A stretch of 19,480 bases of DNA from a virus. Lineage: Duplodnaviria > Heunggongvirae > Uroviricota > Caudoviricetes. The position numbers were made by a program, and so were the translations under genes. The stretch is taken from the IMG/VR virus record IMGVR_UViG_2648501130_000004; one strand, 5' to 3'. This document shows, piece by piece, positions 1 to 7,935 of the stretch; the stretch's first letter is position 1; each line of letters starts with the position of its first letter. The notes under the pieces were generated by a model. That model made no database searches. It was not told the origin of the DNA and saw only the letters and a list, made by a program, of their open reading frames with translations.

Positions 1-1224
1 ATGGCGTTGTCTGATGCGTGGTTGCGTTCAGTCGTTGGAAAGGAACGTGATAAGGTTTTGGTTAAATCCGATCGTGATGGTCTGTCTGTCAGAGTATCAC
101 CGAAAGGTCGCGTAGTGTTCCAATATCGTTATCAATGGGCAGGGAAAGGTGAGCGTCTTGATATCGGAACTTACCCGGCAACTGGATTAAAAGAGGCCAG
201 AGAAGAAGTTATCCGTCTCCGTGGTGAACTTGAGTCAAACCGTAATCCACGATTGGTCAAGCAGGCTGAAAAACGAAAAGCTACTGAAGCCATGACGGTA
301 GAGTCTGTGATCCGTGCCTGGTATGAAGCATATTGTGTAAAAAATAAAAAAGGTTCTGAACAGATACTCCGCTCGTTTGAGCTGCACCTGTTCTCTAAAA
401 TCGGGAATATCCCTCACGATGCAGCTACATTGCATGATTGGTTAGAAGTCCTGGAGCCTCTTAGCACTAAGACTCCAGCAATAGCAGACCGATTGCTAAT
501 TAACGCAAAGCAGGCCCATGTCTGGGCGTATAAGAGAAAGCTCATTGAAACTCGCCCGCTGTCGGATATCACGGGTAAAGATATGGATATCCGTAAAGGT
601 CAGAAGAAACGGTTTCTGACACATGATGAAATTAAAATCCTTTATGCTGCGATCGATGGTTCTCGAATGGTTCCTAAATACCGGGCCTTCATTAAGCTAT
701 TGCTGCATTTTGGCTGCCGTAGTTCAGAGCTAATTACTGCCAGGGTGGGCGATTTTGATTTCATTAATAAGGTATGGACTGTACCACCAGAACGACATAA
801 GACTGGAGAGATAACAGGCGAACCGCTAAAGAGGCCCATTATTGAACCGGTGGAGGAGCTTATAAAGAACGCTATCTCTATGAACAATGGTTCCGATATG
901 CTTTTTACTAAGGAAGGAAGCAGGGAACCCGTTGGTCGAACATCATTGCAGTCGCTGCCTTACAATTTAATGCAGTACGCATGGAGGCGTTTGGGGCATC
1001 AATTCCCTCATTGGTCTCTTCATGATTTGAGGCGAACAGCACGAACAAACTTTTCTGATCTTACTGCTCCTCATATTGCAGAAATAATGCTCGGCCATAA
1101 ACTGCCAGGGGTTTGGCAGGTTTATGACAAGAGCGATTATCTAGAAGAACAGCGTAAAGCATATCAGGCATGGTGGGAGAGAGTTGAATCGATCGTTACT
1201 TGTACTGGCCCAGAATCTACCTGA
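1..1224 (+). CDS. int: Tyrosine site-specific integrase, P4-like family with N-terminal arm-binding (DUF4102-like) domain
   Basis: 407-aa ORF; N-terminus LSDAWLRSV...LSVRVSPKGRVVFQYRY...GTYPATGLKEAREE typical of P4-type arm domain; C-terminal HDLRRTARTN...LGHKL...VYDKSDY catalytic-domain motifs. Confidence 0.9.
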   Translation: MALSDAWLRSVVGKERDKVLVKSDRDGLSVRVSPKGRVVFQYRYQWAGKGERLDIGTYPATGLKEAREEVIRLRGELESNRNPRLVKQAEKRKATEAMTVESVIRAWYEAYCVKNKKGSEQILRSFELHLFSKIGNIPHDAATLHDWLEVLEPLSTKTPAIADRLLINAKQAHVWAYKRKLIETRPLSDITGKDMDIRKGQKKRFLTHDEIKILYAAIDGSRMVPKYRAFIKLLLHFGCRSSELITARVGDFDFINKVWTVPPERHKTGEITGEPLKRPIIEPVEELIKNAISMNNGSDMLFTKEGSREPVGRTSLQSLPYNLMQYAWRRLGHQFPHWSLHDLRRTARTNFSDLTAPHIAEIMLGHKLPGVWQVYDKSDYLEEQRKAYQAWWERVESIVTCTGPEST

Positions 1225-1480
1225 CAGCTTGCGTAGCCCTGACAGTCTGTTTTGAGCGAACAGTGGACATTTTCAATGGCATTCTTGAGTAGGTTACGCT
1301 TAGACCAGAAGTAAGAGGTGATAGAATTATCAACAATACATAAAACATAGGGGATCCTTATTGATTTATTGATCTTGACCAACTTATGTGATGCAGTATG
1401 TCTTTAACTTGTATTACTATTATCTTTATCTTTATCTTGTTGTTTCTAATAAACTTATCTTATTTCAGAAAGGAGTTTTT

Positions 1481-3181
1481 ATGCATTTAGTCACGAAATC
1501 TTATTTCGATGCCTTTTGCAAAGCATTCGCTGCGCCCTATGAGGAGACCAAAAATTTTGAGGCGTTTGTGAACTATTGTGCTTTTTCAAAATACTCAGGC
1601 GACAAAGTTGAGGTCAGTGATCTTGTGTATGAAGGCCCGGACCCTGGTATTGATGGAGCATTTTTATTTTTAGACGACAGAGCCATTTTTTCAACTGAAG
1701 AACTTCAGGAGATTTTCCAAAACTCACGTCGCGAGTTTCAAGTTTCATTAGTATTCACGCAAGCTAAGTCATCGGAGAAGTGGAGCAAACAGGAAATAGA
1801 CTCTTACATTGCGTCAATAAGAGATTATCTTTCACCAGCGCCACAACAACCCCACAGTGAATATCTAGCGGACTTTAAAAAAATGTTCAACTTGATATTT
1901 GCTAATATCGGCAGAGTCAAAAATGGCCTTCCAGACTTATACGCATATTTTTTTAGTGCTGCACAAAATACAGAGGCCAGAGAAATAAAAGCTGCATTTG
2001 CATCGGGTGAAAAAAGCTTAAAGTCACTCGGGTTTTCACATGAAACATCCTTCATTATGGCTCACAAAGACATGATTCATGAGCTTTGGCTTGCTGCGGA
2101 AGGTCCAATAGAAGCTAAACTTCCTACAATAGGCTATGCTCCATTCCCAGCGGCCCCTAATATTAATAATGCCTATGTAGCTACAGTCAAAGCTCGTAGT
2201 TTTATTGATTCTATACTTAAAGACAAAAATGGAAACCCTCGAAAAAAATTATTCGAAGAAAATGTTAGAGATTTTCTGGGAATTGATGGTGACGTAAATT
2301 CAGAAATTGCAGGAACACTAGATACTGATGGAAAAAAAGCAAGATTTGGTTTAATGAATAATGGAGTGACAATAGTTGCATCAAGCGTGAGGCCTGCAGG
2401 GCAAGAAATTTTTATACGAGATTTTCAAATTGTTAATGGATGTCAAACGTCTAATGTTCTTATATCAAAAGACATTCAAGTAGATGAATCAGTTAGTTTA
2501 ATGATTAAATTAATTGAAACCGATGAGCCAGCGATCCTTGATGACATTGTACGAGCTACGAATAGACAATCTAAAGTTGAAGATGCACAGTTCATTTCAA
2601 CGCTAAAAAAATTAAGGGAATTAGAACATTATTTTAATGCTAAAGGTGCTATTGAAGGAAATAAAATTTATTTTGAGAGAAGAAAGGGGCAGTATAGTTC
2701 AGAAAGTATAGCTCCAGTACGCATATTTGATATCAGAGAAGTTGCGCGAGCATATGCTGCTATTGTTATGATGAGACCAGATTATTCCAGTCGTTATCCA
2801 AATAGGTTAACTGGTGACTTACTTAATGAGGTTTTCTCTTCCGATGCCCTCGAGGATGATTATTATATATCTTGCTATTGCTTGTATAGGCTAAAGGCTC
2901 TTATCTCAAATAAGAGGTTTGATGGGAAGTATTCAAAATTACGCTGGCATATTCTAACTGCTGCGTCAAAATACTGTGGTAATAATTATAAGGCTTGGGG
3001 GTTCAAAAATAAAAATGAAGCTCTTCATAACTTATTCTCAATGAATGATGGGGAGTGGTTTGAAAAACTTGAGAGTTTAGTAAAAATAGCTATACCAGAT
3101 CCGGATATTTCTCGAGACTTACTAAAGTCGCAGCCTTTAACATCAACGATTCTCAAAAGTGTTGATAGCGTACCTAAATAA
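1481..3181 (+). CDS. Large AT-rich accessory protein, candidate abortive-infection/defence protein (AIPR-like, tentative)
   Basis: ORF track gives 1388..3181; the likely start is ATG 1481 preceded by AAAGGAG. GC about 28-38 percent in sampled lines versus 50-60 percent in the backbone. Central FQIVNGCQTSNV motif that I associate with the AIPR family. No Walker A motif seen. Confidence 0.6.
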   Translation: MHLVTKSYFDAFCKAFAAPYEETKNFEAFVNYCAFSKYSGDKVEVSDLVYEGPDPGIDGAFLFLDDRAIFSTEELQEIFQNSRREFQVSLVFTQAKSSEKWSKQEIDSYIASIRDYLSPAPQQPHSEYLADFKKMFNLIFANIGRVKNGLPDLYAYFFSAAQNTEAREIKAAFASGEKSLKSLGFSHETSFIMAHKDMIHELWLAAEGPIEAKLPTIGYAPFPAAPNINNAYVATVKARSFIDSILKDKNGNPRKKLFEENVRDFLGIDGDVNSEIAGTLDTDGKKARFGLMNNGVTIVASSVRPAGQEIFIRDFQIVNGCQTSNVLISKDIQVDESVSLMIKLIETDEPAILDDIVRATNRQSKVEDAQFISTLKKLRELEHYFNAKGAIEGNKIYFERRKGQYSSESIAPVRIFDIREVARAYAAIVMMRPDYSSRYPNRLTGDLLNEVFSSDALEDDYYISCYCLYRLKALISNKRFDGKYSKLRWHILTAASKYCGNNYKAWGFKNKNEALHNLFSMNDGEWFEKLESLVKIAIPDPDISRDLLKSQPLTSTILKSVDSVPK

Positions 3182-3187
3182 AGAGAA

Positions 3188-3206
3188 GGGAAGCTTATTG
3201 CTTCCC
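3188..3206. terminator. Stem-loop (GGGAAGC-ttatt-GCTTCCC) after the AT-rich gene; T-rich only on the minus-strand side
   Basis: Perfect 7-bp inverted repeat with 5-nt loop directly after stop codon 3179-3181; on the minus strand it is followed by TTCTCTTTATTT. Confidence 0.4.
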
Positions 3207-3419
3207 AATAAATTAACACACTTATAGAACCCTTGACTTAAACTTTTTACTGGTTCTCTCAGATATCGATAATTTTATAGGTTGTATCATAGCGTGATCG
3301 TCTTCAAGAGAAACAACTTAACATTAAATTAGCAACGTTTGCTCTTGGCACAGACTTGACTGTCAGATTAGTTTGGTCTGTGCCATAGATATGTCAGCTC
3401 CCATCTGAGATAATACACG

Positions 3420-3614
3420 TTACTCAATAACTCCAGCAAATCTGTATATCTTGCGTGATGCCCATTTATTTGGGCAGGATTTAATATCAGGATCTGGAAA
3501 GTCAGGCCTGTATTTCTGGCCAGTTCTCCTGTTTACGCTGTTCCAGCGAAGAACAGTCGATACTGAAACGCCACAGAAGTCGGCGACTTGTTTAGTTGTC
3601 ATTAAGTTGTTCAT
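3420..3614 (-). CDS. xis: Excisionase / AlpA-like small HTH DNA-binding protein
   Basis: 64-aa ORF; N-terminus MNNLMTTKQVADFCGVSVSTVLRWN resembles excisionase/AlpA HTH; start ATG overlaps the upstream stop (TAATG) with GGAGGTG RBS. Confidence 0.55.
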   Translation of the reverse strand: MNNLMTTKQVADFCGVSVSTVLRWNSVNRRTGQKYRPDFPDPDIKSCPNKWASRKIYRFAGVIE

Positions 3615-4234
3615 TACTTCACCTCCTGCGGCGGCTCCGGTAGCGGCATCCAGTGGGTTACTTTCGATGCCGGTTCTTCCCTATCGTCAGTAACTGCCCA
3701 CCATTTGTTTCTCGACCAATCGTAATACCCTTCGAAGGTATCGCACTCAGTCCAGCCGTAAGGCTTCCCCCAACACCAAACATACTGTTTATCGTTCGGC
3801 ATTCGCTCACTACAGCTTATCCAACCATCCGGAGTTACTGGAGAGTTGCCCGACAGCTTGTTCAACTTGTAAGTCTGGCTTACAGGTTCGGCACCATGAA
3901 GCATGGCGGCGCGGCAGGCGTTCCAGCCTTCATCAAAACCGACTATGCCATTATTTAAAGACGGACGAGCATCTGGCACCACCGGCACTGGCTTGGCTAT
4001 ATATAGCGGCTGAACATACCAGCCCTTTGATAACCAACTGTCAGCAATGTTTTTACTCCTCGTTATTGCCGGAATACCTAAGCCATTTTCTGAATGCAGC
4101 CATGCCACCGGCTCCTCTTCTAGCGATGCCAGAGCAATTTCATAAGCACGGCGCTCAATATCGTCTCGAACCTCTAGGCTGCTGATTCGTTCTTTGATTT
4201 CTTTAATCAGTTCTTTATCGGTAAATGTGGTCAT
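3614..4234 (-). CDS. Phage protein with C-terminal DUF551-like domain
   Basis: 206-aa ORF; C-terminus WWAVTDDREEPASKVTHWMPLPEPP matches the DUF551 signature as I remember it; TAATG coupling to the upstream gene, GGAGG RBS. Confidence 0.7.
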   Translation of the reverse strand: MTTFTDKELIKEIKERISSLEVRDDIERRAYEIALASLEEEPVAWLHSENGLGIPAITRSKNIADSWLSKGWYVQPLYIAKPVPVVPDARPSLNNGIVGFDEGWNACRAAMLHGAEPVSQTYKLNKLSGNSPVTPDGWISCSERMPNDKQYVWCWGKPYGWTECDTFEGYYDWSRNKWWAVTDDREEPASKVTHWMPLPEPPQEVK

Positions 4235-4596
4235 TATGCTCCAGCCTCCGGTGCTTTTGGCATTACTGCCCAGTGAGTGATATTGACGTTTTCAAGGTCC
4301 CCGACCTGAAATGTCCACTGCCATTCTCCGGTTTCTTTTTGCCCCCATGTATACCAGAGAGAACGCCAGCCAATCAGCCAGCCTTCTCCATTAGCATCAA
4401 ATAACAAAACACTTTCATTTGCTGGTGGCAGTTCAGTTGACACTGGTATTACTTTGTTTTCCTGTGCTGCACATTTAGCTTCAAGCGCATCGAATTTACG
4501 CACTAGGTATTCAGCATCCGTTTCATTCACTTTCAGATCTCGCGGTACACATCTCCCACGAAGAAACCCTTCCATTTCGAAAACATTCATGCGCAT
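4234..4596 (-). CDS. Small phage protein with DUF551-like C-terminus (YfdS-like size)
   Basis: 120-aa ORF ending ...ENVNITHWAVMPKAPE; alternative start 4590 (ATGA overlap with upstream stop). Confidence 0.65.
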   Translation of the reverse strand: MRMNVFEMEGFLRGRCVPRDLKVNETDAEYLVRKFDALEAKCAAQENKVIPVSTELPPANESVLLFDANGEGWLIGWRSLWYTWGQKETGEWQWTFQVGDLENVNITHWAVMPKAPEAGA

Positions 4597-5123
4597 TTGC
4601 GTAACTCCGATAATTCGTTAAAGCGTTCCATAAACATCCCGTAGGCATGGCCTGGAGCCAGTGGAATCACGTTGAACATCTCTGTTGCCGGGATACCTTC
4701 CAGCACAGGCCAGAAAGAGCCATCATCAAGCCCGAGATCGCGGCGTTCGGTTGCCAGCATAATGAGATCGGCATATTTCACTGGCGTGCTCATAACAGGA
4801 GGTAACCCGTATTTCTCACGGATTACGGCGTCTATTTTTTCTTCCATCCGTTTATAGTCAGGAAGAAGTCGTTTCAGTGGTGCGGGGATGTCCTGGCAAT
4901 ATGCTTCTGTTGCATCATGCATTAAAGCTTCAAAAGCAAATTCCTGCGGCACCAGCTGGCTGCAAAGCACCGCATGTTGGGCGACGCTGTAGAAGTGAGA
5001 AAGATGACCGGCAAAGCGGCAGATATTTGAAAGGGAAACCGCGATATCGTTAATAACGATGTCGTCTTTATTTATCTTGTCATAATAAAAATGCTTCCCG
5101 GAAAAAGTTTTAATAAATGACAT
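4587..5123 (-). CDS. HD-domain phosphohydrolase (YfdR/YfbR-like putative 5'-deoxynucleotidase)
   Basis: H...HD metal-binding motif (SVAQHAVLCSQL ... ALMHDATEAY); start taken at internal ATG 5123 with GGAGAA RBS, giving 178 aa; the ORF track's longer 199-aa start lacks an RBS. Confidence 0.75.
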   Translation of the reverse strand: MSFIKTFSGKHFYYDKINKDDIVINDIAVSLSNICRFAGHLSHFYSVAQHAVLCSQLVPQEFAFEALMHDATEAYCQDIPAPLKRLLPDYKRMEEKIDAVIREKYGLPPVMSTPVKYADLIMLATERRDLGLDDGSFWPVLEGIPATEMFNVIPLAPGHAYGMFMERFNELSELRKCA

Positions 5124-5217
5124 TTTGTTCTCCACTTTATATGCGCTGCACCGCGCTGAATTTTGGTTAAAGAAAACCCTCGCCATCAGGCGATTATTGA
5201 GTTAATTACGTTTCCAT

Positions 5218-5239
5218 AAATGCCCCCGCAGGGGCATTT
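5218..5239. other. Perfect 9-bp stem-loop (AAATGCCCC-cgca-GGGGCATTT) between the YfdQ-like and HD genes
   Basis: Seen directly in sequence, 13 nt downstream of the YfdQ-like stop; no U-tract follows. Confidence 0.4.
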
Positions 5240-5251
5240 GCAGTAATGAAA

Positions 5252-6076
5252 TCAGGCGGTGAAAGTACCAATAAAGGTTTCTACTTTGCTGTCTTTGAAT
5301 TTTTCAACAAGCAGATCACGAAATTCGTTAGCCATTTCTTCCTGCACTGCTTCCAGCTGAATAATGCGCAGAACCAGTACAGGGCGATCACCAGTGATAA
5401 TGCTGAGGCGTAATTTAAACGGACGTTCTTTCAGGCCTTCAAACGGAACGCATTTAAACTCAAATGCTACTGGCATAATGTCTTTGGTTTTCGCTTCGAC
5501 AGACTCCATCAGAGAGCGTTTGCCGCTGAAGTCATTGTCTTCAAAATCAGCGGTCTGGTTTGCTTCAATCGTGATTTTACGGACCGCCGCAGCCGCTTTT
5601 GTTGCCTGAATGGCGTCACCATTAGCATCAAAGCCCACAAGGTAGTCGGCCCAGTCTTCAATCCATTCTGCCAGTGACTTCTGGGAGTTACGCTCGCCGT
5701 TAACAGACAACAGGGCAGAGAACGGTGCTGTCTTTTTCAGTTTGAGAGTGGCGGTGTTATCTGCGTGACCTGGTTCATCAATAGTACCCAGGTTAAGCAC
5801 ACTGACGGCTCGCATATTATCAGCATCGATAAAGCAGCGGGTGCCTTCATCTGCAAGATCTTTAGAATAACGGGTAAAGTCATCGATGCTGGCAGTGGAA
5901 AGCGCACCACGGAAACGGAAGCGATTTAAATTAAATTTTTCCAGATCATGAATGCGGAAATTCTCAGGCAATGCCACAGCATCGGCACCAATCTTACTGA
6001 TAATTTCATTAACACCCTGAGCAGAAATAAGGGCATGGATTTGATTAATTGCGGTTGTGTCTAAGTTCTGAGACAT
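5252..6076 (-). CDS. YfdQ-like phage protein (DUF2303 family, function unknown)
   Basis: 274-aa ORF; resembles in length and sequence the CPS-53 YfdQ family as I recall it; GAGGA RBS 7 nt upstream of the ATG. Confidence 0.75.
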
Positions 6077-6141
6077 AATAAGTCCTCACTATATAAAGAT
6101 ATTCAGTGATGAGATAAATAATCAGTTTATTAAAAACGATA

Positions 6142-6504
6142 TTAACGACCTGCTGCGCGGAGTTTTCCGTCAGGTTCACCGGCAAGAGTCAGTAATTGTC
6201 CCTGGTCTTCCTGCAGAATAGTCAGGCGACCACCGCGATTGACATACATCGGCGTTTCGGTGGTGTCTTCTTCGGAAATTTTCCCGCGGTTAGTCGGGCG
6301 AACATATGAGAGTTTGTGTTTGATTTTTACACGGTTCTCATCAAACGGTTCGATTTCCAGGTTGAGCGAGACCTTACCTTTGGTTTTCGTGTTCATCACA
6401 CCGGAAGCGACTTCACTGAGAACAGCGCCGATTTTGGTTTCAAATACGCCGCCGTCCAGCTCCCCGATAAATGCCTGCACATCAGTACTGCGTTCGCTAG
6501 CCAT
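6142..6504 (-). CDS. YfdP-like small phage protein (function unknown)
   Basis: ORF track extends to 6735, but the credible start is ATG 6504 (MASERSTDVQ...) preceded by GAGGAG, giving 120 aa; the upstream extension is GC-rich leader with no RBS. Confidence 0.65.
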   Translation of the reverse strand: MASERSTDVQAFIGELDGGVFETKIGAVLSEVASGVMNTKTKGKVSLNLEIEPFDENRVKIKHKLSYVRPTNRGKISEEDTTETPMYVNRGGRLTILQEDQGQLLTLAGEPDGKLRAAGR

Positions 6505-6649
6505 TTTGCTGCTCCTCATCATATCGACCCTGCAAGGTCGGTTGGTTTCTCCACAAAACAGAGAAGAACACCTGCGGTGGCAGCCGCCCGGATGGATTGG
6601 GTTATGAGCCCGTCGTCCGGTGATGCCCTTCTCTGTTTTGTAAAAAGAG

Positions 6650-6698
6650 CGGTACCAGCCGGAAGCAAGTGTACAAACTGGTACCGCCAAAGCAGTGG
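6650..6698 (-). terminator. Intrinsic terminator inside the pL leader (tL-like)
   Basis: On the minus strand GCGGTACCAG-(19 nt loop)-CTGGTACCGC, a perfect 10-bp stem, followed by UCUUUUUA. Confidence 0.5.
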
Positions 6699-7104
6699 CT
6701 GTTGTGGTGGGGTTGTCACTCAGGCGTATGGTCAACCTGACAATCCGGTGTCCTCAACGGGGAAAGAGTAACCCCGCCATACTTACCGCCGCGCCATTTC
6801 GCGGATTACCACAACGCTGAGAGCACTTAGCCAGTTACGGCACCACACTTTGTCGCGGTTCCATAAATGCCCTCATCGTTGCACCCTGGTCTCTTCCCAG
6901 GCGTCAAACCGGATCGCCACGCTGGTTAGGCGTCTTATCAGCATCATCATTGACTTGCACATTCCGGCTACCTGGTTTGTTTGCCCGAGCAAGGAGTGGA
7001 TTGTCCCCTTTAACGTCCCCAGACCGCTAACGACGCATGTGCCATACGCCGTGTTACAACCAAATTTAGTTTAATCTTGCCTGTGTTATGTTTCTTTTAG
7101 ATAC

Positions 7105-7132
7105 ATTATGTATCTCAAGGGTACATTGTCAA
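7105..7132 (-). promoter_or_regulatory. pL-like early-left promoter (TTGACA - 16 bp - CATAAT) overlapped by a perfect palindromic operator AGATACA-tta-TGTATCT (7099..7115)
   Basis: Minus-strand -35 TTGACA at 7132..7127 and -10 CATAAT at 7110..7105; sits directly downstream of the cI terminator, as lambda pL/oL sits relative to cI. Confidence 0.5.
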
Positions 7133-7134
7133 GT

Positions 7135-7158
7135 ATAAAAAAACCTGCCGAAGCAGGT
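7135..7158 (-). terminator. Intrinsic terminator of the cI transcript
   Basis: Minus-strand hairpin ACCTGC-ttcg-GCAGGT followed by a run of about 8 U, 13 nt after the cI stop. Confidence 0.7.
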
Positions 7159-7170
7159 TATAAATATTGA

Positions 7171-7845
7171 TTAGGCCTTTATTTTGTATCTTCTTGGTTT
7201 TCCCGAGAAAATCACTGTACCAATTATAGAGCAATTACCGTTAATCTTAATGTAAGGCTCAGGCCAGTTTGGGTTTAATGCTTTGAGATAACGCTGTGTT
7301 CCATCTTCTATCAATCGCTTGAAGGTGGTTTCGCCTGTATCGTGCATCAATGCAATAACGTCGTCACCGTGGCAGGCAGGGACTTCGGGATCAACAAAAA
7401 TCATGTCTCCAGGGCGGTACTCATCAATCATTGAATCACCAATCACCCGCAAGATATAAGTCATTTCGCCACAGGGTACAGGGCAGGGGTAAGTTTCTGC
7501 TGTGCTCAAATCAACCTCAGAATAGCCAACTTCTTTCCATGCTCCGGCCTGTACCCATGATATGACAGGGACTAACGTTATTTGTTTGTTAGTGATTGAA
7601 ACATCAGGTTTTTTTGTGATGTTCGTGGTCTGGTGTTCTTGATCAAGCCATCCGACAGGCAGGTCGAAACATTTTTCGATGTGCCGCGCCATGCTGTCAC
7701 CGATATTTTTAGTAGCACCATCTCCCATAAACCTGCTGGTCTGGGTTGGCTCGCGATCAATCATGGTGGCAAAGGAAGAATTCCCGCCAACACCATCTCT
7801 CAGTTTTCTGGCGTTAGACCGCCGGATGTCATGGATTGTTTTCAT
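7171..7845 (-). CDS. CI-like prophage repressor (N-terminal HTH, C-terminal S24 LexA-type autopeptidase domain)
   Basis: 224-aa ORF; C-terminal LRVIGDSMIDEYRPGDMIFVDPE... is characteristic of S24 peptidase repressors; divergent from cro. Confidence 0.88.
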   Translation of the reverse strand: MKTIHDIRRSNARKLRDGVGGNSSFATMIDREPTQTSRFMGDGATKNIGDSMARHIEKCFDLPVGWLDQEHQTTNITKKPDVSITNKQITLVPVISWVQAGAWKEVGYSEVDLSTAETYPCPVPCGEMTYILRVIGDSMIDEYRPGDMIFVDPEVPACHGDDVIALMHDTGETTFKRLIEDGTQRYLKALNPNWPEPYIKINGNCSIIGTVIFSGKPRRYKIKA

Positions 7846-7935
7846 AACGAAATTAAAACCTTTGTACCGATAAGGTACAAGTATCTTGAAGGTTCATTTC
7901 AATCATGTAATATGTATATCGGAGGTACATATTGT
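7846..7935. promoter_or_regulatory. Immunity-region operator/promoter (OR-like): inverted repeat TTGTACC-gataa-GGTACAA (7862..7880) plus candidate PR (TTGAAG 7886..7891, 16 bp, TAATAT 7908..7913)
   Basis: 90-bp divergent intergenic region between the cI and cro starts; palindrome and promoter hexamers read directly from the sequence. Confidence 0.5.

Follow-up and report, generated by a model that had tools for sequence, protein, structure and literature searches.

yfdR, a prophage gene for an HD-domain protein, in the probable early-left operon of a defective Escherichia coli prophage

The yfdR gene and its identity

The window analysed here is the whole 19,480-nucleotide stretch of the IMG/VR virus record IMGVR_UViG_2648501130_000004 (Caudoviricetes), and all coordinates refer to it. 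The gene under study lies on the minus strand, where an open reading frame runs from an ATG at 5123 to a TGA at 4589-4587 and encodes 178 amino acids.

4587-5123, minus strand: yfdR coding sequence, 178 amino acids plus stop; HD-domain phosphohydrolase, also published as a DnaA-binding protein
5130-5133, minus strand: Shine-Dalgarno GGAG of yfdR, six bases 5' of the ATG, read from the sequence

The encoded protein aligns without gaps to YfdR of E. coli K-12 (b2361, prophage CPS-53) and is identical to it at 177 of 178 residues (99.4%), the sole substitution being a conservative one, E170 here versus D170 in K-12. At the DNA level the gene is 100% identical to RefSeq genes annotated as "yfdR: 5'-deoxynucleotidase" in many chromosomes. 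The protein matches PHROG 318, "deoxyribonucleoside 5' monophosphate phosphatase", at 4e-110 and the solved structure PDB 2gz4 over its full length at 1e-13. Homology to PHROG 318, K-12 YfdR and 2gz4 rules out a chance open reading frame, and on these matches the gene at 4587-5123 is yfdR itself, a very common prophage gene of E. coli. An alternative in-frame ATG at 5186 would lengthen the protein by 21 residues. Because RefSeq does not use that start on identical DNA, the interval given in the first-pass annotation, which equals the RefSeq CDS exactly, is the accepted yfdR coding sequence. The same annotation had described the product as an HD-domain enzyme of the YfbR/YfdR nucleotidase type, and this description holds: the gene is yfdR, its RefSeq name is 5'-deoxynucleotidase and all of the metal-binding residues are kept.

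Organization and predicted control of the leftward operon

The leftward block consists, in order, of yfdP, yfdQ, yfdR, yfdS, a 206-residue DUF551 gene and a small helix-turn-helix gene at the xis position. Listed from the repressor gene leftward, its features are as follows.

7171-7845, minus strand: gene for a cI-like, LexA-family repressor, 224 amino acids; Pfam Peptidase_S24 at 1.5e-26; PHROG 4, transcriptional repressor; RefSeq and Ayreon annotation
7142-7159, minus strand: terminator-like hairpin and T-run, immediately 3' of the repressor gene, with the pL-like promoter following closely; marked as a terminator by the Ayreon annotators
7105-7132, minus strand: pL-like sigma-70 promoter, TTGACA, 16-base spacer, CATAAT, 11 of 12 consensus positions; found by promoter scan and annotated as a promoter in Ayreon
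7087-7126, no strand assigned: two operator-like 20-base repeats (TATGTATCTCAAGGGTACAT type) overlapping the pL-like promoter; repeat family D1, inverted repeats I1, I3, I4 and I6
6142-6504, minus strand: yfdP, 120 amino acids, first recognisable gene of the leftward operon; PHROG 204; 98.3% identical to K-12 YfdP
5252-6076, minus strand: yfdQ, 274 amino acids; Pfam DUF2303 at 2e-92; 98.9% identical to K-12 YfdQ
5124-5251, minus strand: structured yfdQ-yfdR spacer with hairpins at 5218-5239 and 5193-5180; terminator scan and RNA fold
4234-4596, minus strand: yfdS, 120 amino acids, Pfam DUF551; 95.8% identical to K-12 YfdS
3614-4234, minus strand: DUF551 gene at the position of K-12 yfdT, 206 amino acids; only the first 42 match YfdT
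3420-3614, minus strand: small helix-turn-helix gene, 64 amino acids, at the excisionase position and last of the leftward block; placed as xis of ST64B

The operator-like repeats have related copies in the divergent rightward promoter region, which separates the repressor gene from a cro-like gene; these copies occupy 7878-7897 and 7911-7930. The same order, from the cI-like gene through to xis and int, is seen in Salmonella phage ST64B. Phage Ayreon, whose deposited host is E. coli K12, is 98.6% identical over window positions 3364-11170, and its annotators independently marked the same promoter, the terminator after the repressor gene and a terminator within the yfdQ-yfdR spacer (equivalent to window 5210-5249). 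A position in the early-left operon had been proposed for the gene from its letters, and the architecture agrees: a repressor gene, a terminator, an 11/12 promoter with shared operator repeats, and a leftward block ending in xis and int. The arrangement of these features gives good support to a repressor-controlled early-left operon. The cI-like protein presumably keeps the operon silent in the lysogen, and the pL-like site at 7105-7132 would drive yfdP-Q-R-S; both the promoter activity of this site and its repression are predictions from the sequence.

The pL-like promoter is separated from the start of yfdP by around 600 bases (6505-7100, minus strand) with no convincing open reading frame, the largest independent ones encoding 39 and 66 amino acids. 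No Rfam family reached its gathering score over this interval, and a 107-base stretch of it is 84% conserved in ST64B. The region could be a long leader carrying an antitermination or regulatory RNA, or could hold unrecognised small genes.

A second structured region separates yfdQ from yfdR. The hairpin at 5218-5239 is perfect and GC-rich, while that at 5193-5180 is terminator-like with a T-run. The spacer folds at -40.9 kcal/mol (z = -3.6), which beats all 200 of 200 shuffled sequences, and a promoter scan of its minus (coding) strand gave no promoter-like site. The hairpins are probably partial terminators or RNA-stabilising hairpins within the operon, and the spacer may determine how strongly yfdPQ is expressed relative to yfdRS. 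Downstream, the first 10 bases of yfdS are also the last 10 of yfdR (ATGCGCATGA), suggesting translational coupling of the two genes.

At the far end of the block the 206-residue DUF551 protein and the 101-residue K-12 YfdT have their first 42 residues in common at 93% identity. The two genes appear, from this comparison, to carry one N-terminal module on different C-terminal parts, a mosaic comparable to the Ea22 variants. The 64-residue helix-turn-helix protein gave a weak HTH_17 match, under the cut-off.

Distribution and state of the prophage

Related copies of yfdR were found in 2971 of 5426 complete E. coli genomes and in 49 deposited phage genomes, including SfII, Stx2-converting phages, cdtI and 2H10. 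Strain AR434 has a prophage between yjjG and prfC to which window positions 1-11631 are 99.99% identical. This AR434 prophage, otherwise nearly identical, lacks the next ~860 bases of the window (11632-12489) and carries a pseudogene at that site.

The remainder of the window (13609-19480) contains an antiterminator gene (13609-14403) and then only tail-fibre fragments. Within this region are two oppositely oriented tail-fibre-assembly genes, a truncated recombinase gene and a 161-base inverted repeat (15966-16126 and 16895-17055). Judged by these components, the tail-fibre region is what remains of a Gin/Pin-type invertible segment. Because no head or lysis genes are present the prophage is defective, and for the same reason induction of its leftward operon may have no purpose in phage growth.

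Two further features were noted outside the leftward block. A plus-strand gene at 1481-3181, flanked by the integrase gene (1-1224) and the xis-like gene, encodes a 566-residue AIPR-family protein, with matches to PADLOC AbiU (2.6e-111), Pfam AIPR (5e-43) and PHROG 1841 (abortive-infection family). This AIPR/AbiU-like gene is probably defence cargo at the attachment-site end of the prophage. On the other side of the repressor gene, isrK (9088-9164, 58.9 bits) and C4 antisense RNA (9189-9276, 80.7 bits) occur in tandem on the plus strand, both above the Rfam gathering score. They fall inside a CDS annotated as an 'ash family protein' in AR434 and as the 'immunity region' in Ayreon, which suggests a P1/P7-type RNA-controlled antirepressor module and possibly an over-extended CDS annotation.

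The HD active site

YfdR was aligned with nine phage homologues (68-33% identity), Atu1052 and E. coli YfbR, giving a 12-sequence alignment with relatives down to 19% identity. Five of the nine phage sequences come from Salmonella, Klebsiella, Xanthomonas, Pseudomonas and Caulobacter phages, and the others from Tunturiibacter, Vibrio, Achromobacter and Bacillus phages. Ten positions are invariant: R36, V47, H50, H69, D70, E73, D78, P82, K84 and D119 (YfdR numbering). The H...HD...D metal-binding motif of the HD-domain phosphohydrolase superfamily is therefore present in YfdR, and the H...HD motif recognised earlier is confirmed as H50 and H69-D70, with the distal D119 equally invariant. Loss of metal-binding residues on careful alignment had been named as the finding that would count against the enzyme assignment; none is lost in the 12 sequences and the site is intact.

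Residues H50, H69, D70, D119, E73 and D78 of YfdR align with H33, H68, D69, D137, E72 and D77 of YfbR. E72 of YfbR has a catalytic role; the role of its counterpart in the phage HD enzyme DatZ, E70, was revised. In YfbR, H33, H68, D69 and D137 are the Co2+ ligands, and R18, W19 and D77 determine specificity for deoxyribose, D77 contacting the sugar itself (PMC8177086). A pairwise MAFFT alignment of YfdR and YfbR was discarded, as it misplaced the first histidine and the C-terminal aspartate, both of which the 12-sequence alignment put right.

The R18-W19 pair of YfbR probably corresponds to R36-F37 of YfdR, judged by spacing from the first histidine; MAFFT set R36 against YfbR R12. The ribose-excluding Trp19 of YfbR is thus probably Phe37 in YfdR, an assignment made by spacing because the MAFFT alignment of this segment is unreliable. 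The tryptophan of the pair is retained in Atu1052.

Family placement and fold

An HMM search for a YfbR-like domain had been suggested as a check. Such a match exists, covering YfdR residues 41-104, yet it scores 24.3 bits against Pfam PF12917 (gathering cut-off 25.9), and the NCBIfam YfbR equivalog NF003009 scores 19.9, far under its cut-off of 122. With scores under both cut-offs, YfdR is not a YfbR orthologue. At E <= 0.01, PF12917 matches nine of ten YfdR family members, the best at 2.5e-08. A profile built from these ten members found 2gz4 at 2e-30 and YfbR (2PAQ) at 1.2e-5 in the PDB, and was not significant for DatZ (E = 0.53) or OxsA (E = 0.11). PHROG 7076 matched YfdR at only 1e-4, over residues 54-121. 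By these searches YfdR is in a separate, mostly phage-borne clade comprising PHROG 318 and PDB 2gz4.

A single-sequence AlphaFold model of YfdR was unusable (mean pLDDT 38, pTM 0.24). The full-length match to the solved 2gz4 structure indirectly supports a fold as a small all-helical HD-domain hydrolase.

The distant phage homologues have as neighbours genes for DNA polymerase and dUTPase, thymidine kinase and DHFR, a Cas4-type exonuclease and helicase, or DNA ligase, a setting consistent with the family having arisen in the metabolism of DNA and nucleotides. Because the catalytic residues are strictly kept in E. coli prophages as in phages of Bacillus, Caulobacter and Vibrio, catalysis appears to be under selection in the YfdR family, and DnaA binding can then not be its sole function.

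Published function of YfdR

In experiments on the K-12 protein and its partners, Noguchi and Katayama found that yfdQRST in multicopy suppresses the overinitiation of hda-185. Supplied in the same way, yfdQRS or yfdQRT inhibited initiation in several genetic backgrounds (PMC4776307). The former of these two sets, yfdQ, yfdR and yfdS, is intact in the window. YfdR was the only DnaA binder among YfdQRST, bound only domains I-II of DnaA in a Phe46-dependent manner, and competed on domain I with DiaA and the DnaB helicase (PMC4776307). By itself it inhibited the DiaA and DnaB interactions only moderately; YfdQ together with YfdS or YfdT was required in vivo, so that yfdQ is needed along with yfdR for inhibition of initiation (PMC4776307). 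Extracts containing YfdQRST inhibited oriC replication in vitro (PMC4776307). YfdR is described again in a 2025 paper as a prophage-encoded protein that competes with DnaB for domain I of DnaA (PMC12122000).

The study of Noguchi and Katayama describes the nucleotide affinities of YfdR as much below those of YfbR and calls its function elusive (PMC4776307, citing Zimmerman 2008). Its functional data come from overexpression throughout, and the authors concede a possible artefact (PMC4776307). Deletion of yfdQRST in K-12 gave no initiation or hydroxyurea phenotype; deletion of CPS-53, yfdQ or yfdS is reported to raise sensitivity to H2O2 (PMC4776307). In an engineered strain, deletion of yfdR did not raise the yield of CMP (PMC10870394). 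For DUF2303, the family of YfdQ, no functional study was found beyond the 2016 paper, and no paper was found joining HD domain, deoxynucleotidase and phage.

These reports divide what had been proposed from the sequence for the role of the enzyme. Inhibition of host replication stands, as a published block of initiation, but the route through nucleotide pools does not, the reported mechanism being direct binding of DnaA domain I (PMC4776307). Reshaping of nucleotide pools is itself disfavoured by the low affinity relative to YfbR and by the CMP result in the engineered strain.

Proposed role in the early-left module

We consider it probable, with some reserve, that yfdR acts here as part of an early-left module whose derepressed products YfdQRS block initiation through DnaA, with a weak dNMP phosphatase activity besides. 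The module, yfdP-yfdQ-yfdR-yfdS, would be one conserved among temperate phages of the SfV/ST64B/CPS-53/Ayreon type and located in this case in a defective prophage, and YfdR would bring to it an intact single-metal HD site. In the lysogen the cI-like repressor would hold the leftward promoter off, and once repression was lifted the leftward operon would be transcribed. YfdR would then bind DnaA domain I via Phe46 and compete with DiaA and DnaB, as reported for the K-12 protein, and with YfdQ and either YfdS or YfdT would stop further initiation of chromosome replication at oriC. It would also dephosphorylate 2'-deoxynucleoside 5'-monophosphates at low affinity, again as reported for the K-12 protein. 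Taking the published and comparative evidence together, the DnaA block is most likely the main in vivo effect of YfdR, and the nucleotidase most likely a genuine, weak, ancestral activity.

A serious rival, although we regard it as rather unlikely, is that YfdR is purely a nucleotide-pool enzyme that dephosphorylates dNMPs in a Co2+/Mn2+-dependent manner during phage development, DnaA binding being an artefact of overexpression. What makes it serious is the strict conservation of the full catalytic set across very distant phage homologues. Both RefSeq and PHROG name the protein a deoxynucleotidase, homologues elsewhere adjoin genes for dUTPase, thymidine kinase, DHFR and DNA polymerase, and the artefact is one that the authors of the DnaA study themselves allow for. 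However, affinities far below those of YfbR and a CMP yield unaltered by yfdR deletion (PMC10870394) are not what such an enzyme would lead one to expect, and the reported DnaA binding is specific, being confined to YfdR, to domains I-II and to an intact Phe46 (PMC4776307).

The substrate of YfdR might also be something other than a canonical dNMP. It could be a nucleotide that is modified or damaged, a dNTP, as used by DatZ, or a nucleotide of defence signalling, and YfdR would then be a sanitising or counter-defence enzyme. We think this improbable. A better substrate may exist, given the weak activity reported on canonical dNMPs (PMC4776307), the apparent replacement of YfbR Trp19 by Phe37, by spacing, implies a different pocket, and yfdR sits in the accessory early region of temperate phages with an AbiU-like defence gene nearby. 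Yet a search of PADLOC-DB v2 at E <= 0.01 gave no match for YfdR, YfdQ, YfdS, YfdP or the DUF551 protein, and the family profile reaches YfbR and not DatZ or OxsA. Among 31 papers that mention YfdR, no title or abstract points to a defence or anti-defence role. The suggestion that the enzyme counters nucleotide-based defence signalling or restricts incoming phages consequently finds no support in these searches. A combined form, in which YfdR would act on a defence-signalling or modified nucleotide and moonlight in DnaA binding, shutting off initiation while disarming a nucleotide-based host response, is conceivable but more doubtful still. Finally, that yfdR has no function at present and drifts here as a silent remnant is very unlikely: the element does lack head, lysis and most tail genes, and yfdQRST deletion in K-12 was without a replication phenotype (PMC4776307), but the open reading frame is intact with its catalytic residues, Shine-Dalgarno sequence and operon partners, yfdR is 97-100% conserved over nearly 3000 genomes and viable phages, and deletions of CPS-53, yfdQ and yfdS have the reported H2O2 phenotype (PMC4776307).

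Significance

The yfdR gene, its HD domain, the weak deoxynucleotidase activity and the DnaA binding are all already published, and over half of the complete E. coli genomes contain related copies, so that the locus is minor as a discovery. The copy described here and the near-identical one in the viable phage Ayreon do, however, keep the native repressor, operator and promoter that have been lost from K-12 CPS-53. Copies under native control would be a better system for studying inhibition of DnaA by YfdQRS at natural expression levels. Such a system could also explain the strong conservation of the catalytic site despite poor activity on canonical dNMPs.

Comparison with known systems

Lambda P, Bacillus SirA, and E. 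coli DiaA and Dps are, like YfdR, regulators that bind DnaA, and YfdR lowers initiation. SirA and DiaA are reported to use the same Phe46/Phe49 surface of DnaA domain I, whereas lambda P binds domain III (PMC4776307). All four proteins are unrelated to YfdR, and none is an HD hydrolase.

Phage T5 Dmp, a deoxynucleoside-5'-monophosphatase, resembles YfdR as a phage-encoded early enzyme annotated for dNMP dephosphorylation, and the likeness is a functional analogy only. It was rejected as the closest phage relative of YfdR, since the two have no detectable similarity (BLASTP E above 3) and belong to different PHROG families, 415 for Dmp (annotated as polynucleotide-kinase-like) and 318 for YfdR.

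The closest solved structure is that of Agrobacterium Atu1052 (PDB 2gz4), which has the R-W/F, H, HD and D motifs in common with YfdR at ~30% identity, and which is a structural-genomics entry without a functional name in the PDB table. E. coli YfbR (PDB 2PAQ) has the HD domain, the metal ligands and the residues equivalent to E72 and D77 in common with YfdR, and both proteins are reported to act on dNMPs. The two nevertheless are only 19% identical, with the profile match limited to YfdR residues 41-104; the nucleotide affinity of YfdR is much lower, and Trp19 of YfbR is apparently Phe37 by spacing. YfbR is moreover encoded by a chromosomal housekeeping gene and YfdR by a prophage gene.

Closest of all is K-12 YfdR of CPS-53, which agrees in length, in 177 of 178 residues and in RefSeq product name. 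Its neighbours yfdP, yfdQ and yfdS have the same order and overlaps as here. However, the element in the window retains the repressor gene and the pL-like promoter, its DUF551 gene is full-length in the place taken by the short yfdT in K-12, and the element lies between yjjG and prfC, whereas CPS-53 occupies argW.
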